64,000 nt of DNA from an uncultured Gammaproteobacteria bacterium (lineage in GTDB: Bacteria > Patescibacteriota > Microgenomatia > Levybacterales > UBA12049): contig CAZFRF010000001.1 in assembly GCA_964521295.1 (NCBI GenBank), forward strand, positions 850,066 to 914,065, written 5' to 3'. The notes under the pieces were generated by a model. It searched no databases and was not told the origin of the DNA. It worked only from the letters and a program-made list of their open reading frames with translations. Position numbers and translations under genes: made by a program. Positions 12,001-61,461 of this stretch are shown piece by piece. Within the stretch, counting starts at the first letter, position 1; each line of letters opens with the position of its first letter.

Positions 12001-15000
12001 AGGCTCCTGAGTTTAATGTTCCAATTGCTAATTTATCATCTGTTTTAAGAGTATCAGCTGCTGATCTGTATAAATTAGTATCTCTAGAAGCACCAAAAGC
12101 AATTCCATTGGCAGCATCAGTATTATCAGCACCAGATGATAACCAAAGAACTTGAGTATCAGCGCCTGCTATTGTTATTCCGTAATCATTAGTATCTCCT
12201 CCTGTTTGATCTTGAATATATAGACCATGATTGTTGACGATGGTGCCTGTCGAAGTAGGGTTTTGAATATGGATACCATATGCGTTAGTAATTGTAGCCG
12301 TGGCATTAGATGCTGATATAAGAGATGTTATTCCATAACAGTTTGTTATTGTTGTCCCTGCGCTAGCAGCTTGGCATTGTGACCATATGCCATATGTATT
12401 TGTAAATGTTTCAGATAGGCCACTAGACTGTAATCCTCTTGCCCAAATTCCATAAGTAGTATCTGCATCTTGTGAATCAAAATATCCTCCGTATCCAGTA
12501 ACGATTCCATTTGAAGCGTAATCTCCATTTTCATAGGATTGAGCATATATTCCTCGGCTTGTCGTTATGGTTGCGCCGTCAGTTGTGGCATAGGAAATGA
12601 ATCTACCACCGTCATTGTTAGTTACAGTACCACCCGCATTACTGTTTTGGGCAATACCATATATGCCCATATTACTTGTTACTGTTCCTGCGGCATTCAA
12701 ATTTGCAATTCCATATGTGCCGGCCGAAGTAGTTGCTGTATTACCAAAGGAAGAGAGAGTGGAGGAGCTTATTAAGGAATATCCTTGAGTTCCATAAGAA
12801 GTGTCAATTGTGTAGCCATTGTTTAATTGCGATACGTTATATCCTGCGATTGCAGTATGTGAGAACATATCGTCACTTGCAGTGGTAGTTACATAATTAT
12901 ATAGTCCATAATCTGTTCTATTTGCGTTAATAGTTCCAGTTATGGTTCGTTGAACTGTGCCTGTATATGTTTTTGCGTTAATATCTGAATTTGAATCATT
13001 TATGTCAAAAAGTCTATCTGTTCTCGCAATAGTTCCATTGCCAAGTGCTAGGGTTGGGGCAAGAGCGTTTCCGTTTGAATCTACTTGGAAAAGGTCTCCA
13101 TTTCCAACTACAAATAGCTTAGAAGGAGTGGAATCTCCAATTCCTACGTTTCCACCGTTTGGTTGAAGTAAGAGATATGATGTTGTTTTAGTAGCGTGTG
13201 ATGTTCCTTCAAGAGTAAGATTTCCATTAGCAGCAGTGTCTCCATAAACTGTTCCTGCACCATTTCTAGGCATTAACCAAATATTTCCAGTAGTATTTCC
13301 ACCGAGAGTTAAATTGTTATTAGTTGTAGTCTGAATGCTTCTTGCTCCGCCTGATAGGGTAAGGTTTCCTGCAATTGATGCAGTCGAGCCAACCGTAAGG
13401 GTATCATCGATAGTTACATCGTTGTAGAATCTAGAATCTCCATTGTCATCAATTGCGAATGATGTCCCGCCTCTAATTTGGAAAACTATTCCGTTGGTTC
13501 CAGCTGAAGGAGCAGTATTGGATGAATCCGTAGTGGCATTAATTATTAAGCTTTTAGCATTGTTAGTTGCTGAATAGCTTGTTAAAAAGTTGCCTCCAGC
13601 AGTACCGCCAATTCCAACATTTTGAGTTGTGCTTCTGCCGATATTGGCAACATCAGTAATGTCTCTAAAGGCTGATAATAAGGAAATTGGGGTGGTTGTG
13701 CCAATTCCAACATAGCCTGAGTTGTTAAGAGGGGAGAGGATTATATTCCCAGTAGTATTTCCGCCTATGGTGAGTTGTTGGTTGGCAGTAGATTGAATTT
13801 GAGCAGTGCCATTTCTGAAAGTAAATTGTCCGCCGACAGACGCTGCGCCGTCTACATCCAATATTGCAGTGGGAGAAGTGGTTCCAATTCCCAATCTACC
13901 ATTTGGTGTAATTCTCATTTGCTCTGATCCACCAAGCTTCCAGGTTAGGGTAGGTGCAGATGCGCCTGTGATTTCTTGCTCAATTATATTAGTAGCCTCT
14001 GTAAAGTTGTATTGAAAAATTGGCAGATTTGATCCACCTGCTCTTTGTAATCTAAATAATGTACCATCTCCAGTACTATTTACTTGGAGTCTAGCAAGAG
14101 GGTTAGTAGTTCCAATTCCTACATTGCCACCTGCACCATTTTTTGGCATTACAATTAAATTTCCGGCAACAGTTGCAGTTGCTGGTCCTGTTCCATTTAA
14201 GCCTAGAACTGCGAATTTTGCAGTTGCTGTAGCTGTTCCACCTAAAAGAAAGTCCATTGTTGAGTTAATTGGAGTTAAAGCTTTTCCATCAGAGGAGGTG
14301 GTCCACCAATCTGTTGGAAGTCCGCTCGCACAAGAACCCCAGGTGGGAGTTGTAGCTCCAGAAACTAAACAAAGTCCAGAGCTACCAGTTACTGCGCTTA
14401 AAGCTCCTGTTGCTGAATCAGCATATAAGACTCTATTGTTTCCGGTGAAGGAGGTAGTTAGCGTTCCTATTAAGGTTGCGGATCCTAACTGAAGCGTACC
14501 TGCTGAAGCATAAATATCATGATTTCCAGATCCACTAAACCTAAGATCTGCTCCGGTTCCACTTAATACTATGCCTGTTGCTCCACCTACTGAAATATCA
14601 CCTGAATTTGTTTGGTTTCCACCGTTATCTACGGTAAATACTGGCGCTCCAGAAACGGAAGCGCTAATTACTGGACCTGTAGAATTTTGATTTACTGTGA
14701 ATGCCGATTGTCCAGATGAGGTAGCGAGAATTGCAAACTGATCATTAACTTCAACTGCTCCTGCTGCTGTAAAAGCTCCTGCTGCTGATCTAATATTGGT
14801 AGAAAGAGTATTGTTTTGTAAAGGTTTTTGGACATCAATTTTACCAGTGCCATTTGGACTAATGACTACATTTGAATTACTAGAGTCATTAGTTGTTAAA
14901 AGTAATGGTTGACCTGAAAGCTTAAATTGTCCGCCGCTTGCTGAGAAAGCAGGTGAGGCTGATCCACCAATTGTTAGGTTTCCGGATGAGTCTAGGGCTA

Positions 15001-16582
15001 AGACAACATTTGATGTGCCTGCGGCTGTAGCAGTGATTGGAAGAAGTCCTTGTAATGTTTCAGAATTCGCTGCATAGCCGACAGTTGCAATTTGTTGCCT
15101 AGGAGTAAGCTCTCCTGTTGATTCAACGGTTACACCTAGGAACAAAGCTGCATTTTCTGCAAATAGAGTAGAGGGGATTGCACATTGTCCAGTTGCAATT
15201 GCGATTGGATTAGCGCAGGTTGGTCCACTACCAAGTAAGGTATTAAAAATACCATCTTGGTCTGGTGTTACTTTGTCTACTTCTTGCCAAAGTAAAATAC
15301 CTGCACCTGTTCCTGGAGTTTGTTGAGTGTAGATCGCAAATCTAAGATTGGTTAAAGAAGTAATAGGATTATCATTGTTATCTGTAAGTCTTCCTTGGAA
15401 GGAAAGGATTCTATTTGGTGAGGTTGGTAGGTTAGGAGCAGCTGTGATTTTAGATTGGTTTCCAAAGAAGGAATTATAAAAACCTAAAGATATGGCAACA
15501 ATAACGATAATAAATACTGCAAAGTGGAAATAGTGGGTAATTGCATATGAATGATATCTTTTGTACCAATTTGGTCTAGTAAATCTAGCGTGAAAAATAA
15601 TTCTTTGTAGAGGAGAAAGAGAACTAACGGCTATGGTTGAAGGTGCAAAAACCTTTTTAGAAATATTTCTTATACCCAATAAGTCTTTGTGGGTAATGTT
15701 TTTAATTTGAAATGTTTGGGGATTCTTGTGAAAAATTGGTTTTCCTTTGAGTGTCCAGGCTAAATCTTGTCCTTTTTTAGCAAAAGAAGCTAAAGGAAGT
15801 ATTAATGCAGCATCTAAAGCTAAGATTAATCCTTGGGATAGTTTCTGAGCAAGTCTTAAAGGAGGGAATCTGGAATATGTTTTAGTTTTAATTTCTGGTT
15901 GTGAAAATTCAGGAGTCTCAGGTATAAATAATTTTTGTTTTGCCTCATTTATATTTGTGAAATCTAATACTTTTTCAGTTAAGATGCCAGCTTCATCTGC
16001 CCAAGTTAGATATTTTCTCAAAGAAGATAGTTTTCTATTAACAGAGGCTGGCGAAAAGCCTTTGGAGCTACTTAATGCTGTCTTGTATTCTTCGATAAAT
16101 TCCTTGCTTATTCTGCCTGGTAATATTGAGTCTTCGAGTCCAGTGGCTTCCTTTGCCCAATTAATGAATTGTTTAACATCAATGATATAGTTTTTTATAG
16201 TAAGATGCGCTGCGTTAGTATCGAATAAGCTGCTTTTGAAATCCTTTAGCTTCCAATAGTCTTTTTCTTCTGGTTTATTTAAGGCTAAAGCTTCGAAAGG
16301 ATCAAAGGTTATTTGATTTTCGATCTTAAGGAATTTGAAGAATTTTCTAAGGGATGATAAGTGTCTTTGCATTGATGAAGCAGAGAAGACTGAGGAGTTG
16401 TCTTTTTTGTACTCTTCGAGTGTTTGGAAATTAACTTGGCCAGGAGTAAAGCTTGAGTTGTATTTCTGAGAAAACCAGTTAACGAAATGATTAATATCCG
16501 ATAAGTAGTTTTTTACAGTAACCTTTGAAGGCTGAACTTCTTGTGAAAATAAATAATTTTTAAAGCTTGTTAATAAATCCAT
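1..16582 (-). CDS. Giant cell-surface repeat protein of at least 5,527 codons; its 3' end lies beyond window position 1. Domain order: N-terminal 2x integrase-SAM-like (core-binding-like) repeats, one TM helix, then tail-fibre-like 'GNVGIGTTxP(D/T)xALEINS...NSGGDLTINPSG' repeat units, two CBM4_9-like jelly-roll modules, and Kelch-like blades.
   Basis: Manual reverse-complement translation from ATG (complement of 16580-16582; an in-frame stop lies just upstream at 16604-16606) stays open in one frame (codon first bases at positions congruent to 1 mod 3) all the way to position 1. The frame was spot-checked at 12002-12058 and at 1-10. The gene is absent from the ORF track because no stop lies inside the window. 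All listed ORFs in 1-16582 are short, antisense or out of frame. N-terminus: MDLLTSFKNYLFSQEV...RHLSSLRKFFKFL plus a second copy ...NRKLSSLRKYLTWA, then a hydrophobic helix HYFHFAVFIIVIVAISLGFY. Confidence 0.8.
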   Translation of the reverse strand, partial: MDLLTSFKNYLFSQEVQPSKVTVKNYLSDINHFVNWFSQKYNSSFTPGQVNFQTLEEYKKDNSSVFSASSMQRHLSSLRKFFKFLKIENQITFDPFEALALNKPEEKDYWKLKDFKSSLFDTNAAHLTIKNYIIDVKQFINWAKEATGLEDSILPGRISKEFIEEYKTALSSSKGFSPASVNRKLSSLRKYLTWADEAGILTEKVLDFTNINEAKQKLFIPETPEFSQPEIKTKTYSRFPPLRLAQKLSQGLILALDAALILPLASFAKKGQDLAWTLKGKPIFHKNPQTFQIKNITHKDLLGIRNISKKVFAPSTIAVSSLSPLQRIIFHARFTRPNWYKRYHSYAITHYFHFAVFIIVIVAISLGFYNSFFGNQSKITAAPNLPTSPNRILSFQGRLTDNNDNPITSLTNLRFAIYTQQTPGTGAGILLWQEVDKVTPDQDGIFNTLLGSGPTCANPIAIATGQCAIPSTLFAENAALFLGVTVESTGELTPRQQIATVGYAANSETLQGLLPITATAAGTSNVVLALDSSGNLTIGGSASPAFSASGGQFKLSGQPLLLTTNDSSNSNVVISPNGTGKIDVQKPLQNNTLSTNIRSAAGAFTAAGAVEVNDQFAILATSSGQSAFTVNQNSTGPVISASVSGAPVFTVDNGGNQTNSGDISVGGATGIVLSGTGADLRFSGSGNHDIYASAGTLQLGSATLIGTLTTSFTGNNRVLYADSATGALSAVTGSSGLCLVSGATTPTWGSCASGLPTDWWTTSSDGKALTPINSTMDFLLGGTATATAKFAVLGLNGTGPATATVAGNLIVMPKNGAGGNVGIGTTNPLARLQVNSTGDGTLFRLQRAGGSNLPIFQYNFTEATNIIEQEITGASAPTLTWKLGGSEQMRITPNGRLGIGTTSPTAILDVDGAASVGGQFTFRNGTAQIQSTANQQLTIGGNTTGNIILSPLNNSGYVGIGTTTPISLLSAFRDITDVANIGRSTTQNVGIGGTAGGNFLTSYSATNNAKSLIINATTDSSNTAPSAGTNGIVFQIRGGTSFAIDDNGDSRFYNDVTIDDTLTVGSTASIAGNLTLSGGARSIQTTTNNNLTLGGNTTGNIWLMPRNGAGTVYGDTAANGNLTLEGTSHATKTTSYLLLQPNGGNVGIGDSTPSKLFVVGNGDLFQVDSNGNALAPTLALGNGTIARTDRLFDINDSNSDINAKTYTGTVQRTITGTINANRTDYGLYNYVTTTASDDMFSHTAIAGYNVSQLNNGYTIDTSYGTQGYSLISSSTLSSFGNTATTSAGTYGIANLNAAGTVTSNMGIYGIAQNSNAGGTVTNNDGGRFISYATTDGATITTSRGIYAQSYENGDYASNGIVTGYGGYFDSQDADTTYGIWARGLQSSGLSETFTNTYGIWSQCQAASAGTTITNCYGITSLISASNATATITNAYGIHIQNPTSTGTIVNNHGLYIQDQTGGDTNDYGITIAGADTQVLWLSSGADNTDAANGIAFGASRDTNLYRSAADTLKTDDKLAIGTLNSGASNPLCYDGSNILSTCAAGALGTNWWTTSTDGKALTPINNTMDLLVGGNSTSSAQFAVLNIAGTLTPIASVSATAGSDATKGIYLSGNGSLQSVRNNTLTIGGSTTGNIALMPRNGNGNVGIGTSSPTEPLDISGSSTNPIYARVVNTSSGGSGFLVANSTGTNTGRFYWDNNNAKLVIGTITNNPVSFFLNNSEIARFDTSGNLGINTTTPTAKLDINGDASTSGSLVFNGSNKSIDILNGSRLDFQVSPGGDAGLTNAMTIAGNGNVGIGTTNPGTSKLNVQGGAMQQYLASGNNQGLWLHGGDTSNNYVRTENTTGNFDFGQGNNSAFITSANDPLSINVNGSTAMYFPSAGNVGIGTTGPDRALEINSATGVNLRLTYNDNNGSATNYADLVTNSGGDLSINPSGGDLITSGAFTSQNGNIYAGVNDTTGGLFHAYGNGTGSSEGGEVILYTAADYDTTVNAYNLDAYQDDFRIYQGSNTRLTITNTGLVGLGVGNTVPTSQLYVSRPLASGATGKALSIFDQIENQDIFTASASGTPVFTITRAGGISLGSNGLNYGTGSQCIAGGATASWVNCALGTNWWTTSTDGKALTPINNTMDLLVGGNSTSSAQFAVLNIAGTLTPIASVSATAGSDATKGIYLSGNGSLQSVRNNTLTIGGSTTGNINLSPSNGSGFVNISGGLGASGIIAGKNILPYQYASWETGVDGTNIPSARNVNVTSVTISTADAYDGTRSVAVSTNGSATDGYAYLNGTSSTSYNIPIKPSTKYAFSVYSKLSAGTTCSVEMYVRESDGTHRSAGGTADTSSWTRLSNTFTSNSGSTAVIIRVDANCASTTALFDGFMLEEIPTSQTYASAWSSNGNFGIRMDQNNLLGLDGSASVSGNLVLEGASRSIQSYDQNTLTIGGSTTGNITLLPNNGTGGLINNNGYIAANGNTTITGSPLTVGTNLGWKVGLWSNSFALGIANSTLAVKTGTWLSIFGSSNPANNATNSTPDTNSNINFNATTGDASISGSLVFQSASNQTIDILNGSRLDFQTSPGGDAGLTNAMTIAGNGRVGIGTTNPTAKFQVTGTSGAGGTGDFITNLQGGSVTESDLYILNSRDVNTGVGYAAKVIGVNVQNAVGAANEVYLRSNNGGITSAGAIYLGADDVNQGVFGVLGTPISSAPGTALTHLLTVKGNGNVGIGTTAPDRALEINSATGNNLRLTYNDNNGSATNYADLTTNSGGDLTINPSGSNVVIGSGNYLSVGGTTQVGQITGITSATNPSNGIDTFALTASGSYGGGIGLADGTGNFGIWTDTTGTVARFGFGTSLGALTSYMSLTNAGALTIADDFRVNGNDILDSAGTSRLTLGATTTLTNTGLTFSGTTGITASSLTSMTTGAAFTLNGTSYVRVGDTATPGTATGDDDLFVEGDLEVDGVLYTDGGIDTALTPGSVVFAGTSGVLSQDNASLFYDDTNDSLGIGTAAPGSTTRLSVAKTWGSATATEQFGIYSTINYSAADTGLKQNLRLNTGATHTTGTQANLIGLLSLVTGAGNGGTTTNAYGLWSRIDSATGHTVTNGINYGINNGTVTGTLTNQMGIQVGGLTTGTNNAGILIGEATGTNQSNLVIGSTSIPTGTYSIYNSSTDQNYFAGNVGISTTGPLTKLHVAGGSTTPAGELGSSLITGSTTAMRLAMGVDNTSTMYSWIQSVENGSTQRALSLNPIGGNVGIGTTAPDRALEINSSGGTNLRLTYNDSNGSATNYADLTTNSGGDLTIDPSGGQVVLNNTGDSSLATALSGALILGDTAGDNITMDGNEIMARTAGTTASTLFLNAEGGLVSVGAGGLTSTGTLTANGTLDANGIFTLGDGGETGAITTSDWAIDTTGNITNIGNISNTANASQPYLVLDSVGTGDDWTAQGAYISIGEGGALGSASMHITYTGNGYGYTGAGTVTSGIPAGGYWRYTYNTQNIYTPGSVQIGSNLDVDGNLNVTGLTYAANDFAVASHSAIPAPYNNTNMLANPSFETFAGGLGIADNWNSAGTGTRGRIANQSANHDGAWGLYLTNTGSDTQSQNISSYKIPVSPSTGYTASTWAKVDTACGDGFYLRVIWYDQWGNYLSYNDIYSNSGAVTTSWDNYSGQVTSAANAYHAAVQIYNHNPTNACTLYIDQVSLRASLIDADIAVNGDLLVGSLSETISQAGFSLTGDDLFVTDSIGAEGWIYSDTGLDISDNGKAAGTSMLKIGDDTFLTDVDVANTLGIYSSSDTTRGSIKLGSAGPTLAGTSALLTLTGALNVSSNLDVDGTSNDIAGTLNLSGNTLTSSGDLTIDAAGGGVKIGTGTPGIVDLAGDDLYVTGDLEVAGTTYLGSIDTSLTPGSVVFAGTSGVLSQDNTNFFWDDSANKLGIGDSTPDAKLTLGNNVATGFLDTFAEYQILLYSDATAGNSYGLGVKGSTMVFNTYDAYSWDRRGTTTSMTLDASSNLAVTGNIDAIGGTYNSANNVLSDTDATQPRLVLDSLSTGDNWTSQGAYISLGESGALGSAAMHITYTGDGYGYTGAGTVTSGIPAGGYWRYLYNNQQIYTPSSVDVTNNLTLTQPSATTNTLYGLKNSVGTDKGWFGIIGTAGAYITGSSQYDVFVRSQQNLWFAANAAGTADMMIESSTGKVGIGTTSPEVALDIEKATGNTFGKFGSSFPLYTVASNPTVGFNAYYNSGWKFGQGSTAHYGGEINVSPSTGTMSFNISNAAGAADGAITMQNMLTILQNGNIGVGTTAPDRALEINSSGGTNLRLTYNDSNGSATNYADLTTNSGGDLTINPSGGDISITSDRINFNTTGVAAPTFTNYSSGVKIVLYNDLSGSAAGYTLGIESGTMFSTVSTTGQQFKWYGGTTTAMTLSGAGALTLVGNLAVNGDNITTDGSLTISPTTTLTLNSTGDMTLDSSGDIILDAAGDDVIFKDNGTTYATITNGATNTTFTPLSDGLFVNGSLGVGIAPSSIYRTYFYNQGTDATSKSTSRVLLQNICTSVACSGQYLALDAAAENHSASTQNTTGSLIAIGGTIGNSDTGTVAGVRGLSLTLSGNSGTITNTYGVYIGDLTAGTQTNTPYSIYSSDAGTYNYFAGEVGVGTASPNGIGGGGIMEIVNNDASTNTALTVLNLTRSSTGTAADGIGARLEFNLEDDGSTIREAATINALLTDSSNGSIDSALTFNTRYNQSAFREVLRLTGNSLVGLGTTNPTSELYVTRALSAGTTGKSLTILDQIENQDIFAASSSGTSRFVITNAGKVGINNPLPSGYLSIKAVGAGAPTLVEGYDTTTGTNKAFTLNTDSNGNGSLDLYITGSKKVHLVAWGGDSSYILDSDFGLGTTTPKAKLDVAGSASISGNLAYSGGTNNFSNYVLNGSKLNFMVSPGGTEGNGDIGDGFSTANQSQLPQALNDTFGSITSASVNGTTYIYSLGGQNSGGTSLSTVYKSRVDATFGNAGTFSSTANALPGIRWGGGATTATIGSSTYVYLIGGSSGSVQSTAYYATLSNSDGNPGTFATTSPILATRLEPAVTTATVGGTTYIYAMGGFNSTAVNTNPTSTVYKATVNSNGTLGTFSTTSPLLANRGGGGAVSATIGSSTYVYYVGGGDSQGRSTVYKAAVNPSNGTLGTFSSVTGLPMNRQEGGTEIVTLNDKTYIYSIGSGDNNAVTSSNAVYKTALDSSGNPGTWSSSGQSQLPQNVAYIGTTLVTVNGNSYIFAVGGSGESAASLSTVYRAGIGNVALTIANNGYVGIGTSNPGAQLAITWGPDVSLSNAGTFIIGDTGGQNVGFDNNELQARLNGTTSKLWLNNNGGEVGIGAGGLDVEGNIQLDIQNVSGTFAFCHGTNGAQADSNINDCNGSATDIAEYYPGTEDMEPGDLVSLVASSDARFKYQVVKPTTPYDQNLIGVVSTIPTGPNGDVLGDSTIPEDHYPQAIGLAGRVVVKVSLENGPIRTNDYLTSSSVPGVAMKATKSSRVVGRAIEDYDGTVQVSSGSRDQERY
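3603..3750. repeat. Copy of a ~140-bp near-identical coding repeat (the module encoding ...NSGGDLTINPSGG...LRLTYNDNNGSATNYADL...)
   Basis: Visual alignment with 6711-6858 gives roughly 95% identity. It is more distantly similar to 8297-8435 and 10785-10920. Confidence 0.6.
6711..6858. repeat. Copy of the same ~140-bp coding repeat
   Basis: Contains 'atctccacctgagttggtagttaaatctgcatagtttgtagcagatccattactatc' as in 3603-3750. Confidence 0.6.
8297..8435. repeat. Copy of the same ~140-bp coding repeat, sub-family B
   Basis: Contains 'aaatctccgcctgaattagtagttaaatctgcatagttagttgcagaaccattgttatcattgtatgt', nearly identical to 10785-10920. Confidence 0.6.
10021..10261. repeat. Intragenic 240-bp perfect direct repeat, copy 1 (inside the giant gene)
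   Basis: Read directly: 'caatggttaaggtattgtttctaacagattgcaatg...catcagtagaggttgtccaccagttagtgcc' is identical at 10021-10261 and 11701-11941. The offset is 1680 bp, which is 560 codons, so the copies are in frame. Confidence 0.9.
10785..10920. repeat. Copy of the same ~140-bp coding repeat, sub-family B
   Basis: See 8297-8435. Confidence 0.6.
11701..11941. repeat. Intragenic 240-bp perfect direct repeat, copy 2
   Basis: Identical to 10021-10261. The 20 bp flanking upstream already diverge at a few positions. Confidence 0.9.
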
Positions 16583-17114
16583 TTTAATTGTGACTCTTAA
16601 TATTTAAAAAAGAGTAGGCAGGCACGAGATTATACAGATTATACGCATTATACTCTTGTGAAAAAGAAAATTTACTCATACTATTAGAATAGAAAAAAAT
16701 GAATTTTCAAGTCAATGACCTAGAGTAAAGATCCATAAGATATTTTGATATAGTTTAATATATTCTAGAAAAAATGAATTTCACGGGAAAAATGGTGCAT
16801 TTGTTGAGCATTTAGTTGAAGTAGGGGGTTATAGGTCAAATTTTATATATTTCAAAATATAACAAAGTATAACATTGATTTTGTAATTCTAAATTGTTGT
16901 CCTAATGCTTTCCTAAATATTGATTAAGAAATTAATTAAATATTATGCCTGAAAGGTATTATTTTAGCAGACATTGTCTTTTACTGATAAGATAAATTTA
17001 TAATAGTTTTAGATTGTTAAATCAATAAAAATAACTTTATATTGCAGGTTATATTTATTAATTAGCTTCGAGCTTGTATTTAATATTATTTTCTATGTAC
17101 AATAAGTGTAAGTA

Positions 17115-22134: not shown

Positions 22135-23145
22135 TTAGTTAGTATATTTTTTAACTCTTAAGAGTATAAAGACGAGTATAATTATTAATAAAACTATACC
22201 TATTAAGTAGTTGATGGGGAAGGCAAAGAAGGTTATAGTTTTGGAAAGTGTTTGTGATTTATCATCAAGATTAATAGTAAGTGTGGCTGTGTATGGTCCA
22301 AGTAAAAATTTTTCAGGCCAGATAGCTACGGGAATATTTTCTTCCTCTAGTAATGCATTAGCTGCTGCGTATTCCTTTGAATCTGGGTTTTGTTGTTTTA
22401 AATCAGGAATAAGTCTTTCTGAGTTAGAAAGGATATTAACTGGTAGTAAGTCAATTCTGCCAATTGTTTGATTAAACATGTTTTTAATAACTATCTTTCC
22501 TTGTGGAGTAATAAAATGGTCACTTTTATTAACTACGTTAACGGTAAAGGGTACTGGGCCACTATCTTTAAAAAATGCAGTCTCAAATTCCTTAATGTAT
22601 CCATTTGTTGCGCCTTTTGGTCCGACAGTAAGTAAGACATTCATTGCAATTGCTGCTGTAGCTAAAGAAGAATTAGCTAGGTTGGTGTTGTTATTTTTTG
22701 ATACAAAAAGAATACTAAAGTAATAGTCTCCTTTTTCTTCGTTCGCCGGAACCTGAAGGACAAGTTGTAGCTTTTTGCCTTGCTTAGGAGCTAGGGTAAT
22801 ACTTTTCACAGCTTCGCCCTCATCTAGGATTTTAATTCTATTCGCAAATAGAGGGTCTGGAAAAGCGGAAAAAGTATCTTGAATTTGTAGTTGACCGTCT
22901 TTACTTTGAGCCGGAGCAAAGGGCTTAATAACTATATTTAAATCTACACTCGAATCAGTATTGTTTTCCAAGAAGATATCGCCTTTAGGCTCAGCAGGAG
23001 GTGTGGAGTCGATCTGCATAATTGGAGGATATATGCCTAAAGACACTTCTTGGGCCATGATGTTTTTTACAAGACCAATATTTGAAGCTAAAATTAGCAG
23101 TATTAATATCCAAGTGCTAAGTATAATTATTTTTTTTAGTATCAT
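22135..23145 (-). CDS. Signal-peptide protein with a C-terminal TM anchor (DUF916/CscA-like topology); paralog of 19570..20559
   Basis: N-terminal hydrophobic signal. C-terminal 'LIGIVLLIIILVFILLRVKKYTN'. Same size class and layout as the 329-aa protein. Confidence 0.5.
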   Translation of the reverse strand: MILKKIIILSTWILILLILASNIGLVKNIMAQEVSLGIYPPIMQIDSTPPAEPKGDIFLENNTDSSVDLNIVIKPFAPAQSKDGQLQIQDTFSAFPDPLFANRIKILDEGEAVKSITLAPKQGKKLQLVLQVPANEEKGDYYFSILFVSKNNNTNLANSSLATAAIAMNVLLTVGPKGATNGYIKEFETAFFKDSGPVPFTVNVVNKSDHFITPQGKIVIKNMFNQTIGRIDLLPVNILSNSERLIPDLKQQNPDSKEYAAANALLEEENIPVAIWPEKFLLGPYTATLTINLDDKSQTLSKTITFFAFPINYLIGIVLLIIILVFILLRVKKYTN

Positions 23146-41441: not shown

Positions 41442-41513
41442 GCCCTCGTAGCTCAACGGATAGAGCAGACCCGTCCTAAGGGTAAGATAGAGGTTCAATT
41501 CCCTTCGAGGGCA
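41442..41513 (+). tRNA. tRNA-Arg (anticodon CCT)
   Basis: Cloverleaf: acceptor GCCCTCG/CGAGGGC, D stem GCTC/GAGC, anticodon loop gTCCTAa with U33, T loop TTCAATT. One G.A at 27-43 and one A.C in the T stem. No encoded CCA. Confidence 0.7.
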
Positions 41514-41515
41514 CA

Positions 41516-43916: not shown

Positions 43917-44031
43917 TAATTAAGTATATCGCGTGATACTACCACTTGCAAGTAAAGATGACAATGTTATAATCGAATTACTGAGGCTAAACCTCAGTTT
44001 TGATATATAAATAGTATATTTTGATACACTT

Positions 44032-45051
44032 ATGGCGCTTTCAAAAAGAATTGGTATTGATCTCGGAACCGCAAATACTCTTGTTTACCTAGTGGGAGAA
44101 GGTATTGTTTTAAATGAACCTACCGTTGTTGCTGTAACAGCTGAAGAAAACAGGGTTGTAGCTGTTGGCAAAGAAGCTAAAGAAATGCTTGGTAGAACCC
44201 CTGGAAATATTGTTGCTCAAAGACCTTTGCGTGATGGAGTAATTGCAGATTATACGATTACCGAAGCTATGCTGACATATTTTATCGATAAAGCAGCAGG
44301 TAAGTCGCGTTTTTTCAAGCCAGAAGTTATGGTTTGTATTCCCTCAGGAGTTACTCAAGTAGAGAGAAGAGCGGTATTAGATGCAACTATGGCTGCAGGA
44401 GCAAAAGTAGCCTATTTAATAGAAGAGCCGTTGGCAGCAGCAATTGGGGCAAAAGTGCCAATTGCTCAGCCTGCGGGACACATGGTTGTTGATATTGGCG
44501 GAGGATCAACTGAGGCTGCAGTTATCTCTTTGGGAGGAGTTGTAGTTCATAATAGTGTTAGAGTTGGGGGAAACAAGATCGATGAGGCAATAGCAACTTA
44601 TGTCAAAAAGAAGTTTAATTTACTTATTGGTGAGCGTACAGCAGAAGAAATCAAGATCGAAATGGGCAATGCGTTATTAGATGAGAAAAAGGTTTCTGAG
44701 CAAAAGCACATGGAAATAAGAGGAAGGGATGCTATTAATGGCTTGCCACGTACAATTTCTCTTCACGAAGGCCAAGTAAATGAAGCTATTACGCCAACCT
44801 TAATGGATATAATCTCAGCTGTAAAAGGAGTTATGGAACAGACTCCACCAGAGCTAGCTAGTGACATTATAGATAAAGGTGTTGTTATGAGTGGGGGAAC
44901 TTCGCTTCTAACAAATTTTGATAAGTTAATGACTAAGGTAACTGGAGTTCCTTGTCATGTTGCTGAGGATTCTCTTTTATGTGTAGTTAGGGGCACAGGT
45001 GTAGCATTAGAGAATATAGAGCTATATAAAAGAAGTATAGCGAGAAAATAA
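44032..45051 (+). CDS. mreB: Rod shape-determining actin homolog MreB
   Basis: 'RIGIDLGTANTLVY', 'VVDIGGGSTEAAVISLGG'. 339 aa. Confidence 0.9.
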   Translation: MALSKRIGIDLGTANTLVYLVGEGIVLNEPTVVAVTAEENRVVAVGKEAKEMLGRTPGNIVAQRPLRDGVIADYTITEAMLTYFIDKAAGKSRFFKPEVMVCIPSGVTQVERRAVLDATMAAGAKVAYLIEEPLAAAIGAKVPIAQPAGHMVVDIGGGSTEAAVISLGGVVVHNSVRVGGNKIDEAIATYVKKKFNLLIGERTAEEIKIEMGNALLDEKKVSEQKHMEIRGRDAINGLPRTISLHEGQVNEAITPTLMDIISAVKGVMEQTPPELASDIIDKGVVMSGGTSLLTNFDKLMTKVTGVPCHVAEDSLLCVVRGTGVALENIELYKRSIARK

Positions 45052-45272: not shown

Positions 45273-45986
45273 ATGAATAATTTTAAAAAAATAAATCTGC
45301 TTGGAATTAGTTTTACAAACGCCACAGAATTAGAAGTCTTAGAGTTTATTAATACAAGCCTAAGAGATAATGCCAAAAAGTATTACATTGTTACCCCAAA
45401 TCCTGAGATTTTGGTAATTGCAGACAAAAATCCGGACTACAAAAGAGTGCTAAATGAAGCAGAATTAGCCTTGGCAGACGGGGTAGGGGTCATAATTGCT
45501 ACAAGACTTATGGGTAATAGGCTTAAACAGCGCATTGCAGGGGTAGATCTGCTCGAAAGTATATGTAGGTACTTTGCCGATAAGCCCGTCACGACAAGCT
45601 ATTTAGGGGCTGGGCCTGGAGTAGCAGAGATTACAGCTGAGCGCTTACAAAAAAAATATACAGGACTTAAAGTTGCATGGACTACCGAGGAGTATTTCGA
45701 TGAATTGTCAACAAAAAAGACAGATATTTTGTTTGTAGCGCTGGGTTCTCCAAAACAAGAATTATGGATAAACAAAAATCTCAACAAACTGAACGCTAAA
45801 ATTGTAATTGGAGTGGGAGGGGCTTTTGATTTTATTTCGGGAAAAGTGCCAAGGGCTCCAAGGTTTTTAAGAAACATAGGTCTTGAGTGGCTTTTTAGAT
45901 TAATTATTCAACCATGGAGAATTACTAGACAATTATCATTAGTTAAATTTATTTTTTTGGTAATTAAACAAAGATTTAAAATTTAA
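45273..45986 (+). CDS. WecG/TagA/CpsF family (GT26) N-acetylmannosaminyl-transferase-like glycosyltransferase
   Basis: 'YIVTPNPEILVIADKNPDY...ADGVGVIIATRLMG...VALGSPKQELWI'. Confidence 0.75.
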   Translation: MNNFKKINLLGISFTNATELEVLEFINTSLRDNAKKYYIVTPNPEILVIADKNPDYKRVLNEAELALADGVGVIIATRLMGNRLKQRIAGVDLLESICRYFADKPVTTSYLGAGPGVAEITAERLQKKYTGLKVAWTTEEYFDELSTKKTDILFVALGSPKQELWINKNLNKLNAKIVIGVGGAFDFISGKVPRAPRFLRNIGLEWLFRLIIQPWRITRQLSLVKFIFLVIKQRFKI

Positions 45987-46880
45987 CCAAGATTCTTATG
46001 GTACTAAGTGAATAAATTTACTTAGATAAGTAAGATCCCCTAGATAAATAATTAGCAATCTCTTCTTTTTAATTATTAAAGAATAACTCTGTGAGTTTAT
46101 AAAAGGTAGTGTCAGCTGAATTAATACTTATTATTTTTATTAATAATAGGAAAGTAACAATAAGAGAATTGATAGTCATATAGTTTTTAATAACATTGTA
46201 TAAAATATAAATAGAGTGTAAATTTAACAATTTCTATAAGACAATTTTAAATTTATTATAAGACGATCATGTAATACAAAGAGAAATATATAATAATAAA
46301 ATTAAACAAATAATAGTTTTCGAGAAATTAAAAGGATTAAAATGGGAGGAAATTAATAAAAAATATATTTTGTAATATATGTATATATATTGATATAAAT
46401 AGAGGGTAAAAAGTGATTTTTGGGATTTGGATAGGGGATTTTAGAGATACATAATTTGAACAAAAGGTAATTAAGATTGATGAAAAAAATACGAATCTGG
46501 ATAAATGAAGCTAAAAATAATGATTACCGACTATTTACCGAACATAAAATTGATTAATTTAGCTTCAAATTGTGACTATTTCACAAGTTAGTACATGTCC
46601 TCGTAATTTTAGTACAATTATAGGTTAGATATTTAATCTTAACAGTACAAATAACTGAACAGATTGATTTGTCAATCTAAATAGTCATTTTTGATTAATA
46701 GCATTACGACGTATCGGATGCTAATTTAGCCTATTTTATAACCTATAAAAATGAATTCACGCGCATTTAAGTCATATTTTGGCTAAATTTGAAGCTAAAA
46801 CATGAATTCTATTTATTTTCGAATTAATATTGCTTTTAATTCTAATTGCATATTGTGGCTAAATAGACAATAATTTAATT

Positions 46881-47744
46881 ATGGACTTTAAATTCTTGCA
46901 AGATGATATATCTGGAAAATGGATTGTGTCTGCTCCCAGAAGAGCGAGGCGTCCTAGTGCGACTGGTGGAACAGAAATGTTTTGTCCATTTTGTTACGGT
47001 AGCGAAAAAGAAAACGATGAGTTATATAGGATACCCCAAGAAAATAATTGGAAAGTTAGAGTGATAAAGAATGCCTTTCCTTTTGCATCAGTCCATGAGG
47101 TTATAGTTCATTCTCCGGATCATCATAAAACATTTGATGAGCTCCCATTATCGCAATCTCAGCTTATTTTGGAAACATTTAAAAAACGATACAACGAACA
47201 TGCACAGAAAGGTAGTGTCTATATTTTTAACAATCATGGTGAGGCAGCAGGGGAAAGCCTTCCTCATCCGCACAGTCAACTGGTTGTAATAGGTGATAAT
47301 GTTAAATTGGATTTGCCGCATTATGAGATTGAAGCCAATGAGAAGATAAAAGAAACCGGGTTATTTACGATTTTTGCTCCATATCAGTCTCAATGGCCAG
47401 ATGAAGTTTGGGTGTATCCAAAAAAAAGGAATTCAACGTTTGGAGAGATTAATGAGGAAGAAATTAAAGATTTATCAAAGGTAATATATAGACTTATTCA
47501 GATCATGGATTTAAGACACGGTCATGAGTTTCCTTATAACTTTTATATTTATCCATATAGAGATTGGTATTTTAGACTTGTTCCCAGGATAAAGATAATT
47601 GGTGGTTTTGAAGTTGGTACCAATGTGTTTGTTAATACTCAAGATCCTAAGGAGACAATAGAATTCATAATTGAGCATTTTGATAATCCTGATTTTGAAA
47701 AAATAAAAACACTACATAAGGCTAAATATCATCGATTCTCTTAA
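46881..47744 (+). CDS. GalT-like (HIT superfamily) nucleotidyltransferase / hexose-1-phosphate uridylyltransferase family
   Basis: Zinc knuckle 'CPFCYGSE'. 'LPHPHSQLVVIG' is the HxHxQ active-site motif. Confidence 0.65.
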   Translation: MDFKFLQDDISGKWIVSAPRRARRPSATGGTEMFCPFCYGSEKENDELYRIPQENNWKVRVIKNAFPFASVHEVIVHSPDHHKTFDELPLSQSQLILETFKKRYNEHAQKGSVYIFNNHGEAAGESLPHPHSQLVVIGDNVKLDLPHYEIEANEKIKETGLFTIFAPYQSQWPDEVWVYPKKRNSTFGEINEEEIKDLSKVIYRLIQIMDLRHGHEFPYNFYIYPYRDWYFRLVPRIKIIGGFEVGTNVFVNTQDPKETIEFIIEHFDNPDFEKIKTLHKAKYHRFS

Positions 47745-47763: not shown

Positions 47764-47970
47764 TTAAACTTCTCTGGCTTGAATACCAAGTAGCCACAAT
47801 ACAGCTTCTTTTTTGTATCTTCTGTCTCCTCGGGAATTAATTCTAATTGGCGCTAGTTTACCTCTTTTGCCCCATCTCTTAATTGTTAGGGGAGATACTC
47901 TCAATATTTGAGCAACTTCTCTTACTGTTAGTAAATCTGGGAGGTTATTAATTGAAACTTGATCTGCCAT
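47764..47970 (-). CDS. Excisionase-family / MerR-like helix-turn-helix DNA-binding protein (68 aa)
   Basis: 'LTVREVAQILRVSPLTIKRWGKRGKLAPIRI' is the HTH_17/Xis-type signature. Confidence 0.6.
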   Translation of the reverse strand: MADQVSINNLPDLLTVREVAQILRVSPLTIKRWGKRGKLAPIRINSRGDRRYKKEAVLWLLGIQAREV

Positions 47971-48067
47971 ATGTTTAGTAAATCATTAATAATCAATATG
48001 ATTATTATATACTCTAAAGGTAACAAAATGTAACAAACTTGTCAATAGGTAAAAGACTTTTTGGCAA

Positions 48068-48097
48068 CAAAAAACCGCTCAATTGAGCGGTTGTTTG
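48068..48097 (-). terminator. Rho-independent terminator downstream of rplL (symmetric, potentially bidirectional)
   Basis: Perfect palindrome CCGCTCAATTGAGCGG (48075-48090) flanked by an A-run and TTGTTTG. Confidence 0.75.
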
Positions 48098-48115
48098 CGA
48101 ATTTCGCAACAAAGC

Positions 48116-48529: not shown

Positions 48530-49193
48530 TTTTTACTTCTTCATTAGTTTCATTTAGGGCTTGAGTTTCTTCTTTTTTCTCTTCTGTTGTTGTTTCTGGT
48601 TGAGTTGCTTCTACTGCTGGAGTTTCTGTAGCTGCGCTTGCTGCCATTGCTGGTTTTGCTTTCGCAACTGCATTAAGAGTCATAACTAATTTTTGTAAAT
48701 TCCAGTTTAATGCTCTGTGTAATCCAGAAATTGGAGATTTGAGTCCAACTGCAATTTGAGTTAATAATGTTTCTCTTGATGGTAAAGTGGAAAGTTTAAT
48801 AACTTGTTCGCCTGTAATAAAGTTTTTTTCCATTATTCCGAATTTTACGCTTGGTAAATTAAGTTCTTTAATTGTTTTTGCCAATGCTTTTAATGGACTA
48901 ACGATGTCACCATATAAAAATAAAGTGCCTGTAGGGCCTTGTAGTGACAAGTTTTCAGATAGAGTCATTTTATTTTCAGCTAAAGCGATAGTTAAAAGAG
49001 AGTTTTTAGCTACTACGAATTCGGCCTCAAAGGGCTTAATAGCTTTTTTAAGTTCTTCAATTTGTTTGTGGGTAAGGCCTCCGTAGTTTGTAAAAACTAC
49101 TGCATTAGCCTTAGCAAACATATCTGTTAAAACCTGTACGGTTTCAATTTTCTTTTGCTTATTAGCTGTGATTTTTGGTTCTTTGGTATCCAT
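48510..49193 (-). CDS. rplJ: Ribosomal protein L10 with a ~50-aa acidic Thr/Glu-rich C-terminal extension
   Basis: '[23 protein letters not shown]...VVAKNSLL'. Tail '...[40 protein letters not shown]'. Confidence 0.85.
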
Positions 49194-49217
49194 AAAAAAA
49201 CTCGCCCTAAGCGAGTA
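49194..49217 (-). terminator. Hairpin plus U-tract immediately 5' of the rplJ start codon (terminator of the upstream gene and/or leader attenuator)
   Basis: On the minus strand, ACTCGCttaggGCGAGT is followed by TTTTTTT, which abuts the ATG. Confidence 0.5.
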
Positions 49218-49326
49218 AAAGAGCAGATATAGATTGCTCGTTCATTCCTCGACAGGACTTATCTTTGCGCCTGTTGTCTTAGGTAATATGTAGTTTAACA
49301 AATATTTGGTCTTAAGTCAATGCTAA

Positions 49327-60836: not shown

Positions 60837-60911
60837 GCCGTCTTAGCTCAGTGGTAGAGCAGCTGTTTTGTAAACAGCAGGTCGTCAGTTCAAGTCTGAC
60901 AGACGGCTCCA
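60837..60911 (+). tRNA. tRNA-Thr (anticodon TGT), CCA encoded
   Basis: Acceptor GCCGTCT/AGACGGC, D GCTC/GAGC, anticodon stem GCTGT/ACAGC with loop tTTGTAa, T stem GTCAG/CTGAC, loop TTCAAGT. Confidence 0.9.
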
Positions 60912-60996
60912 GCTGAGGTGGCGGAGTAGTCAATCGCTCGTGACTGTAGATCACGCGACCGGAAGGTCTACGGGAGTGCAAATCTCTCCCTCAGCA
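60912..60996 (+). tRNA. tRNA-Tyr (anticodon GTA), type II with a long variable arm
   Basis: Acceptor GCTGAGG/CCTCAGC. Anticodon stem CGTGA/TCACG with loop cTGTAga. Variable hairpin GACC-GGAA-GGTC. T loop TGCAAAT has the unusual G55. Confidence 0.8.
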
Positions 60997-61005
60997 CAGT
61001 TTTGT

Positions 61006-61077
61006 GCCGGCTTGGCTCAGTGGTAGAGCAAGTCATTGGTAATGACTAGATCGTGGGTCCGATTCCCACAGCCGGCT
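61006..61077 (+). tRNA. tRNA-Thr (anticodon GGT)
   Basis: Acceptor GCCGGCT/AGCCGGC. Anticodon stem AGTCA/TGACT with loop tTGGTaa. T stem GTGGG/CCCAC with loop TCCGATT (C55). Confidence 0.85.
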
Positions 61078-61119
61078 CAAGGTTGAATTAAGCTCAAGTT
61101 TTTTATATAATACATTCCT

Positions 61120-61296
61120 ATGGCAAAAAAAGGCGAACACAGAGTAACAGTTGGATTAGTATGTACTGTTTGTAAAAACAGGAATTATGTCACGTCAAGA
61201 AATAAATTAAATACAGTTGAAAAACTGCTTTTAAAGAAATTCTGCAGACACTGCAGAAAGATTACGGATCACAAAGAAAACGAAAAGTTGAAATAA
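61120..61296 (+). CDS. rpmG: Ribosomal protein L33 (58 aa; below the ORF-track size cutoff)
   Basis: Manual translation MAKKGEHRVTVGLVCTVCKNRNYVTSRNKLNTVEKLLLKKFCRHCRKITDHKENEKLK has the two CxxC pairs typical of L33. Confidence 0.85.
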   Translation: MAKKGEHRVTVGLVCTVCKNRNYVTSRNKLNTVEKLLLKKFCRHCRKITDHKENEKLK

Positions 61297-61312
61297 CTTC
61301 CTCTTTGCAAGT

Positions 61313-61340
61313 TGATAGCACATATTCCTTAAGGTATAAT
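61313..61340 (+). promoter_or_regulatory. Promoter TTGATA, 17-bp spacer, TATAAT, driving tRNA-Trp
   Basis: ttgataGCACATATTCCTTAAGGtataat, ending 12 bp before the tRNA 5' end. Confidence 0.55.
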
Positions 61341-61351
61341 TTACGTGACGA

Positions 61352-61422
61352 AGGGATGTGGTGAAATGGTATCACAGCAGTCTCCAAAACTGCTTTTCAC
61401 AGTTCGAATCTGTGCGTCCCTG
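61352..61422 (+). tRNA. tRNA-Trp (anticodon CCA)
   Basis: Acceptor AGGGATG/CGTCCCT. D GTGA/TCAC. Anticodon stem GCAGT/ACTGC with loop cTCCAaa. T stem CACAG/CTGTG with loop TTCGAAT. Confidence 0.85.
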
Positions 61423-61461
61423 CAGCATTGAAAATATTTTAAGGAGTAGTATAATCCACCA

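Follow-up and report, generated by a model that had tools for sequence, protein, structure and literature searches.

Why does a compact bacterial genome of about 1 Mb retain a long stretch of DNA without genes? We addressed this question for an 894-bp gap (45987-46880) in a 64,000-nucleotide chromosomal segment (the window) from a Levybacteria-type bacterium of the Microgenomates, within the candidate phyla radiation (CPR). The gap separates a WecG/TagA glycosyltransferase gene from a GalT/HIT-like gene, whose protein has Candidatus Levybacteria assemblies as its named best matches. An initial annotation had described the gap as extremely AT-rich and as the longest non-coding stretch of the window, and both descriptions hold: its G+C content is 23.0%, relative to ~36% for the window, and it contains the longest stretch without a stop-free run of at least 80 amino acids (876 bp), with the 829-bp tRNA cluster next in length. 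No open reading frame (ORF) of more than 53 amino acids and no tRNA was found in the gap. Four readings had been offered, a regulatory hub for the GalT-like gene, a small RNA locus, a replication-related element and the remnant of an excised element. We propose, with moderate confidence, that positions 46385-46880 form a large, helically phased cis-regulatory DNA array that controls transcription of the GalT-like gene. Regulation of this gene is the best of the four readings, since the array was found directly upstream of it at all 53 loci that carry the array.

Conservation of the array and its linkage to the GalT-like gene

We gathered loci around homologs of the GalT-like protein, 80 from genomes, 80 from metagenomes and three via exact protein look-up, and detected the element by iterated nhmmer. 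The element 46385-46880 is present in 53 loci, representing 46 distinct sequences, from Levybacteria assemblies. Comparison of the locus across genomes, a check proposed in the initial annotation, thus revealed conservation, the absence of which had been named there as one of the joint grounds for dismissal. At every locus the element lies on the same strand (+) as the GalT-like gene and directly upstream of it, while the gene on its other side may be WecG, a starch/glycogen synthase or others. The boxes that make up the element are kept where the flanking GalT-like protein is only 56–68% identical to that of the window. GalT homologs below ~56% identity mostly lack the element, and lie 4–100 bp behind a co-directional gene, usually a starch/glycogen synthase.

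Comparison to the nearest relative (L004), with a 90% identical protein and 80–89% identical coding DNA, divides the gap into parts. The 5′ part, 45987-46384, shows 45–50% identity and is essentially unalignable, 46440-46790 shows 56–71% identity, and the last 90 nt show 85–89%, a level also found for 46828-46880 and as high as that of coding DNA. In the 5′ part, neither tblastx nor blastn detected conservation apart from one box, and there was no Rfam match. Among relatives carrying the element, the gap as a whole measures 431–1090 bp. Because the boxes persist at 56–68% protein identity while the 5′ part is unalignable, purifying selection appears to act on the boxes; the 5′ part is, as judged from these alignments, an unconstrained AT-rich spacer. 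Since the element accompanies the GalT-like gene in a fixed orientation, whatever gene precedes it, gene-specific control is favored.

The individual motifs emphasized in the initial annotation fared unevenly in this comparison. The palindrome GATTGAtttgTCAATC is located at 46662-46677, as claimed. The CRP-like sequence TGTGActattTCACA is found at its reported position, 46571-46585; however, CRP sites have a 6-nt spacer, and no CRP/FNR-type operator (TGTGA-N6-TCACA) is formed here, where the spacer is 5 nt, the halves are paired in 45.9% of cells and only the TCACA half is conserved. The inverted repeat exists as a perfect 14-mer, 46558-46571 and 46786-46799, with its arms 214 nt apart, although it had been placed 7–8 nt too low (46551-46563 and 46779-46791). 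The word GAAGCTAAAA, said to occur three times, is present in two copies (46507-46516 and 46791-46800), and the third is the 9-mer GAAGCTAAA on the minus strand (46558-46566). Palindromic operator-like sites are therefore present, but they are mostly lineage-specific, so that the weight given to them does not stand.

We measured these motifs against 300 dinucleotide shuffles of the gap, which gave p ~0.03 for the 14-nt inverted repeat, p ~0.04 for the number of 6-bp hairpins and p<0.003 for a 9-mer with at least three G/C occurring three times. Each motif taken singly is barely beyond chance, and the decisive evidence is conservation in relatives, which extends to the GARGCTAAA boxes, the TCACA half and the palindrome's right arm but to no other part of the motifs. 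The minus-strand copy of GAAGCTAAA is restricted to the window and two relatives, L001 and L004, where it is imperfect, and 47.6% of cells across 40 relatives retain its pairing with GARGCTAAA box B. The palindrome pairs in 59.2% of cells, without a compensatory pattern; its right arm and the tail ATCAATCTAAAC are conserved, and its left arm weakly so. The sole truly conserved inverted repeat is formed by boxes G and H (Table 1), which is kept in sequence without covariation (74.6% paired). Individual palindromes thus matter little, and it is the array of boxes at fixed spacing that matters.

Box anatomy and helical phase

The conserved array consists of ~12 short boxes over ~500 bp (Table 1). 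Box C, a direct repeat, is the best conserved, being almost unchanged across 44 sequences. Boxes C and J both read WWWWYCGA-N-TWWTTWYCGAA and each is preceded by GARGCTAAA, and so we regard the array as containing two copies of one composite module, B with C and B′ with J. Box B′ is missing from one clade (L002, L003, L005, L006, L008, L009 and L086), and box D is found in some clades 34–37 nt after J instead of after C. A short ORF across box C (46505-46591) was discarded as a coding sequence, being interrupted by stops in many relatives and changing frame at box D.

The spacing of the boxes is rigid and, where it varies, tends to do so in steps of about one helical turn. Of 46 sequences, 45 have boxes G and H 19 nt apart and 45 have F and H 44–45 nt apart; F to G is 25–26 nt. 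C to F has a mode of 150–151 nt, with changes relative to 151 of -30, -20, -11, -8, +8, +10 and +30, while C to J has a mode of 273–275 nt, equivalent to ~26 helical turns (~26 x 10.5), with variants of ~+/-10 nt. Z lies 140 nt from C in the modal arrangement (variants of 119–121, 130–131, 150 and 161), A to B is 21, 25 or 27 nt, B to C is 17–18 nt, or 28–29 nt in one clade, I follows H at 24 nt, a distance that is 14 nt in one clade, and H to J is either 77–81 or 89–92 nt.

When the length changes are sorted into 19 classes, 14 of these deviate by no more than 2 bp from a multiple of 10.5 (binomial p=0.0018), the best-fitting period being 9.5–10.5, and G/C positions over the 450-bp element have a spectral peak at 9.75–10.25 bp that is individually significant in 19 of 42 sequences, relative to 3 of 53 coding controls; p-values for quantization and periodicity are optimistic, as the sequences share descent and their independence is overstated. 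Despite the shared descent, the rigid spacing, the quantized insertions and deletions and the G/C periodicity agree. Together, these three features point to duplex DNA that is bound by protein on one face.

We infer the binding proteins, the looping, the position of the promoter and the direction of regulation from these comparative observations. Several proteins would occupy the same side of the helix, and ~0.5 kb of AT-rich DNA would be bent, looped or wrapped by them. Module 1 (boxes B and C) presents GARGCTAAA followed by an 11-bp-phased YCGA direct repeat, module 2 (boxes B′ and J) repeats this arrangement, and the two modules, ~26 helical turns apart, bracket the putative palindromic operator TAGCA-N15-TGCTA. 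Most likely, proteins would bind cooperatively to both modules and the intervening DNA would be looped or wrapped, thereby switching a promoter placed just upstream of the ATG. TTGCAT-17-AATAAT is the probable core promoter of the GalT-like gene, judging by the sequence, and the mRNA may be leaderless.

Table 1. Positions of the array boxes and of the adjoining genes in the window.
Feature	Positions	Strand	Sequence or motif	Remarks
mreB	44032-45051	+
WecG/TagA glycosyltransferase gene	45273-45986	+
AT-rich spacer, 5′ part of gap	45987-46384			Unconserved; length varies among relatives
Box Z	46385-46397	+	ATATATTGATATA	Upstream edge of array; at most 2 mismatches in 21 distinct relatives
Box A	46482-46496	+	GAAAAAAAT-N-GAAT	A-tract; conserved in alignments
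Box B	46507-46516	+	GARGCTAAA(A)	First copy; opens module 1
Box C	46524-46541	+	TTACCGA-N4-TTACCGA; consensus ATTACCGAGTATTTACCGAA	Direct repeat, 11-bp register
Inverted copy of GAAGCTAAA	46558-46566	-	GAAGCTAAA	Left arm of 14-nt inverted repeat; lineage-specific
Box D	46579-46586	+	TTTCACAA	Right half of CRP-like motif; TTTTCACA box conserved, TGTGA half not
Box F	46660-46682	+	TAGAYTGTTAAATCAATCTAAAC	Holds palindrome GATTGAtttgTCAATC; about midway from C to J
Box G	46699-46704		TAGCAy	Inverted-repeat partner of H
Box H	46718-46724		TGCTAA	With G forms TAGCA-N15-TGCTA, CIRCE-like geometry
Box I	46742-46750	+	CCTATAAWA	Resembles -10 element
Box B′	46791-46800	+	GARGCTAAAA	Second copy; opens module 2; right arm of 14-nt inverted repeat
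Box J	46807-46822	+	TTCGA-N6-TTCGA; window form TTCTATTTATTTTCGA	Second direct repeat, 11-bp register
Box K	46828-46851	+		Includes part of likely core promoter; conserved in nearer clades
Box K and candidate core promoter of GalT-like gene	46828-46880	+	TTGCAT (46846-46851), 17 nt, AATAAT (46869-46874)	ATG 6 nt on
GalT/HIT-like gene	46881-47744	+		Pfam GalP_UDP_transf and HIT; best solved relative 1Z84, E 3e-30
BldC-like winged helix-turn-helix gene	47764-47970	-		68 amino acids

We compared the array to described regulatory systems. As in the looping operator pairs of gal (OE/OI with GalR and HU), ara (O2/I1 with AraC) and deo, two similar modules flank a promoter region, the distance between them amounts to an integral number of helical turns, and the length changes tolerated are mainly in ~10-bp steps. 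Such tolerance parallels, in evolution, what the classical helical-phasing experiments examined. In contrast to those pairs, the half-sites here are direct repeats rather than palindromes, the array is longer, with at least six further conserved boxes, and its looping is deduced from sequence alone. The operator of HrcA, CIRCE (TTAGCACTC-N9-GAGTGCTAA), shares with boxes G and H the outer core TAGCA...TGCTA and an identical span of 27 bp, TAGCAC and TGCTAA being 20 nt apart in 45 of 46 sequences. However, the arms of G and H match on average 12.85 of 18 positions, the inner CTC/GAG triplets are not conserved, and the downstream gene is no chaperone gene. The array is thus of a known kind, that of complex phased promoter-upstream regions, and matches no described family.

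Several other matches were noted during these comparisons. A CIRCE-like match at 23094-23120 lies within a signal-peptide coding region and is due to chance. Nearer to the CIRCE consensus than boxes G and H is a 27-nt palindrome, TTAKCAGTC-N9-CGAGTGMTAA followed by AGAAAATTTTT, which in one clade lies ~30 nt past the stop codon of the GalT-like gene, between convergent genes (L107 3903-3929, L017 3902-3928, L101 3902-3928 and L117 1184-1210); no Rfam family was matched in L107, L017 or L101. GARGCTAAA was rejected as a genome-wide promoter or regulon motif: its 18 occurrences in the window (2.4 expected) are mostly in-frame Glu-Ala-Lys codons, as in the L7/L12 gene, and outside the element its intergenic frequency is, by a rough estimate, about as expected, with no preferred distance to gene starts. 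Readings of box G on the minus strand as an extended -10 element and of G and H as a sigma-54 site failed at position -7 and on spacing, respectively.

The mreB gene, which precedes the WecG/TagA gene, has a canonical sigma-70-type promoter (TTGCAA-16-TATAAT), and promoters of this type are therefore used in this genome. Directly after the mreB promoter is a perfect hairpin, CTGAGG-CTAAA-CCTCAG, containing the word GAGGCTAAA that is common to boxes B and B′; promoter and hairpin lie within 43948-43995. The position of this hairpin is occupied in L002 and L003 by AAGGCTAAA or AAGGCCAGA, with GAAGCTAA just before the mreB start codon.

Alternative functions of the region

We considered whether the region acts as RNA, either a non-coding RNA or a long 5′ leader with little stable structure, in which the boxes would be sites for proteins or small RNAs. 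A long conserved non-coding stretch within a compact genome would suit such a function, the segment 46480-46760 folds better than shuffles in the window (z of -3.5 on the + strand and -2.75 on the - strand), and in one clade box I is a perfect TATAAT that could start a leader of ~125 nt carrying B′, J and K. However, across 40 relatives the mean folding z-scores are -0.18 and -0.30, and RNAalifold returned 0 consensus pairs on either strand in 40 sequences and, in a 7-sequence subclade, little beyond one short conserved hairpin at box F. Covariation is absent, hairpins of the window being paired in 57.1% of cells vs 55.0% in shuffles. Rfam gave no match to the gap at the gathering score and only noise at E<=10, and no match at this threshold in six relatives, and no intrinsic terminator was predicted in the gap. 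Furthermore, length changes in ~10-bp steps and a 10-bp G/C periodicity characterize duplex DNA rather than RNA. We consider an RNA function unlikely, and the small RNA locus of the initial annotation is not supported.

Phased DNA could alternatively serve the chromosome instead of the gene, for instance by nucleating or anchoring a nucleoid-associated or BldC/RacA-like protein, by acting like a centromere, or by controlling replication from a position remote from the origin. In its favor, the boxes are phased over 0.5 kb, their spacing conserved and the spacers random, which is the layout classically described for the enteric oriC; the strong 10-bp periodicity suggests wrapped or bent DNA, and box C is unique in the sampled sequence. 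The array resembles oriC in having fixed-spacing boxes and spacers of free sequence beside a very AT-rich stretch, and in relatives a TTTTTCACA box fits the relaxed DnaA-box consensus TTWTNCACA. It differs from oriC in lacking a strand-composition switch, a DnaA-box cluster and a nearby dnaA, and in following the GalT-like gene when the neighborhood changes. The skew at third codon positions (GC3 skew, + strand) is +0.24 and +0.39 for + and - genes at 17–46 kb, and +0.28 and +0.19 for those at 46.8–64 kb; its sign is constant across the window, which therefore belongs to one replichore, and the gap is no origin. Sites resembling the DnaA box TTATCCACA with at most 1 mismatch number 21 in the window vs 19.7 expected, without a cluster and with two isolated in the gap, dnaA is not among the annotated ORFs, and no parS palindrome (TGTTTCACGTGAAACA-like) was matched in the window at up to 3 mismatches. 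A dif-like site sought by eye at 46370-46400 matched only 5 of 11 positions in its right arm and was rejected. The replication-related element is thus dismissed as an origin or terminus, with GC3 skew positive on both sides and DnaA boxes at background. A chromosome-level site in the broader sense is, in our estimation, quite unlikely, since the element stays with the GalT-like gene in one orientation as its upstream neighbor changes.

A recombination substrate, such as an invertible promoter segment, an attachment site or a mobile-element scar with the Xis-like helix-turn-helix (HTH) protein encoded nearby as directionality factor, appears highly improbable. This idea draws on the perfect 14-nt inverted repeat around 214 nt of DNA with promoter-like boxes, on the weak match of the HTH protein to an excisionase model (E 3e-6), and on the phased sites, which are typical of recombination complexes. 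Opposed to it are the restriction of the left arm to the window, L001 and L004 with the poor retention of its pairing, the single orientation of the internal boxes at 53 of 53 loci, and the vertical inheritance of the element, which occupies a single locus throughout the clade. The ORFs annotated around the locus revealed no recombinase or integrase domain, and the pairing of conserved flanking inverted repeats with a site-specific recombinase that defines an inverton was not found. An excised-element remnant likewise fits poorly with purifying selection on boxes at fixed spacing, and none of 120 viral contigs containing the C-box pattern matched the element model. The C-box pattern matches in viral contigs are due to chance. 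Two IMG/VR contigs (L182 5157-5262 and L187 2382-2521) contain tandem TTACCGA-N4-TTACCGA arrays of 3–4 copies with a 22-bp step, which are iteron-like and unrelated to the Levybacteria element in a hidden Markov model test.

A BldC-like candidate binder and the gene neighborhood

The regulatory array is adjoined by a candidate binder. The initial annotation had reported an excisionase-family HTH gene 0.9 kb downstream, and the gene is present, although a BldC-like identity fits better. The best model for the 68-residue protein is NCBIfam HTH_BldC (E 1.2e-11, 44 bits against a curated cut-off of 77), the excisionase domain match is weak and below cut-off, and the only solved relatives are BldC structures, 6AMK and 6AMA (E 1.5e-8). 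Arg30 and Lys36, which contact DNA in BldC, are retained. BldC binds to tandem direct repeats of varying number, each with an AT-rich tract and a C/G position, at a 9-bp register and as head-to-tail multimers of variable length that distort the DNA (PMC5859096). Boxes C (TTACCGA twice) and J (TTCGA twice) are likewise tandem AT-rich direct repeats with YCGA, as in the Streptomyces operators at whiI and smeA-sffA, and CCGAG is common to box C and the whiI unit AATCCGAGC (PMC5859096). The adjacent protein, from a family that oligomerizes head-to-tail on direct repeats, could thus bind to the array, which we treat as a lead and not a finding.

Several observations weigh against this candidate and against the regulatory array more generally. 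The start-to-start register of C and J is 11 bp rather than 9 bp, His46 of BldC is replaced by Asp, and the model score is below cut-off. At 45 loci without the element the BldC-like gene adjoins GalT, and at 37 element-bearing loci no copy was detected in flanks of 3 kb, so that this adjacency is common in general and shows no specificity for loci with the element. Box C is unique in the 64-kb window, and the only credible matches in ~1 Mb of related loci, outside the detected elements, were one in a further divergent element upstream of GalT (L013) and three due to chance; there is thus no regulon to support a dedicated regulator. A C-box match in the L10 leader of L036 is a chance match. 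Neither a response regulator nor another regulator gene was noted among ~40 annotated ORFs. A sigma-70 scan of the alignment found no consistently placed promoter upstream of box K, and box I loses its -7 T in several clades, its last T not being conserved overall. A reach of 500 bp upstream is unusual for a bacterial control region, and more so in a reduced genome, and the shared descent of the sequences tempers the statistics of phase.

The region upstream of the BldC-like gene (47971-48115) is itself 92–95% identical to the nearest relative, above the level of coding DNA. TTGACA, a TGTTAC direct repeat with a 10-bp register over the spacer and -10 element, and the perfect palindrome TAATAATCATATTGATTATTA are retained there across 46 loci from Levybacteria; the region looks like an autoregulated promoter of the BldC-like gene. 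The rplL terminator hairpin, AACCGCTCAATTGAGCGGTT, adjoins this promoter, and rplL and rplJ, with the L10 leader, are next in gene order. The Rfam L10_leader upstream of rplJ (49186-49301, -) scores 44.3 bits against a gathering score of 44, and the one in L009 scores 52.9 bits.

The GalT/HIT-like gene, the presumed target, probably encodes a nucleotidyltransferase of the hexose-1-phosphate or ADP-glucose phosphorylase type. Its best solved relative is a plant GalT-like protein that we take to be ADP-glucose phosphorylase. At many loci of element-less Levybacteria (L018-L083 and L098-L163), the GalT-like gene mostly lies 4–100 bp after a Pfam Glyco_transf_5 synthase. This adjacency, together with the likeness to 1Z84, suggests a role in glycogen or ADP-glucose metabolism rather than the Leloir pathway.

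Genes that co-occur with the element in its flanks are clade markers only, namely WecG, mreB, a 381-residue protein of unknown function and a large surface protein. The 381-residue protein has no Pfam domain (L012 3959-5101, -), and its gene lies downstream of the GalT-like gene at 20 loci, each with the element, relative to 0 of 110 element-less loci (Fisher p=1e-11); it is absent from the window and is probably a clade marker. Elsewhere in the window, four tRNA genes (Thr-TGT, Tyr, Thr-GGT and Trp; 60837-61423) fill the second-longest ORF-free stretch and a tRNA-Arg(CCT) lies at 41442-41514. A stop-free frame of more than 5,534 codons (1-16603, -) exits the left end of the window and represents a giant gene, as often seen in CPR genomes, with an all-position GC skew of ~0 and a GC3 skew (+ strand) of +0.52.

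CPR bacteria cannot be grown in isolation and possess very few recognizable regulators, and almost nothing is known of how they control transcription. A conserved non-coding array of 0.5 kb is costly in a genome of ~1 Mb, and therefore marks a strongly selected function. Length changes quantized in helical turns allow DNA that is protein-bound, bent or looped to be recognized by comparison alone, and this signature could be sought elsewhere. If the BldC-like protein binds to the array, the recognition mode of BldC would be extended to a distant phylum and linked to carbon-storage metabolism, the target adjoining glycogen synthase in relatives; if it does not, the array would be an ordinary, though unusually large, promoter-upstream region. 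More tentatively, and as a possibility to which we give limited credence, the ultra-small Levybacteria may maintain a phased nucleoprotein platform of ~0.5 kb, on which small BldC-like proteins, possibly with a palindrome-binding repressor, would oligomerize and wrap or loop the DNA as an enhancer- or chromatin-like switch for a glycogen or sugar-nucleotide gene. Such a platform, if true, would be a natural illustration, drawn from comparative genomics, of the constraint that helical phase places on regulatory DNA.

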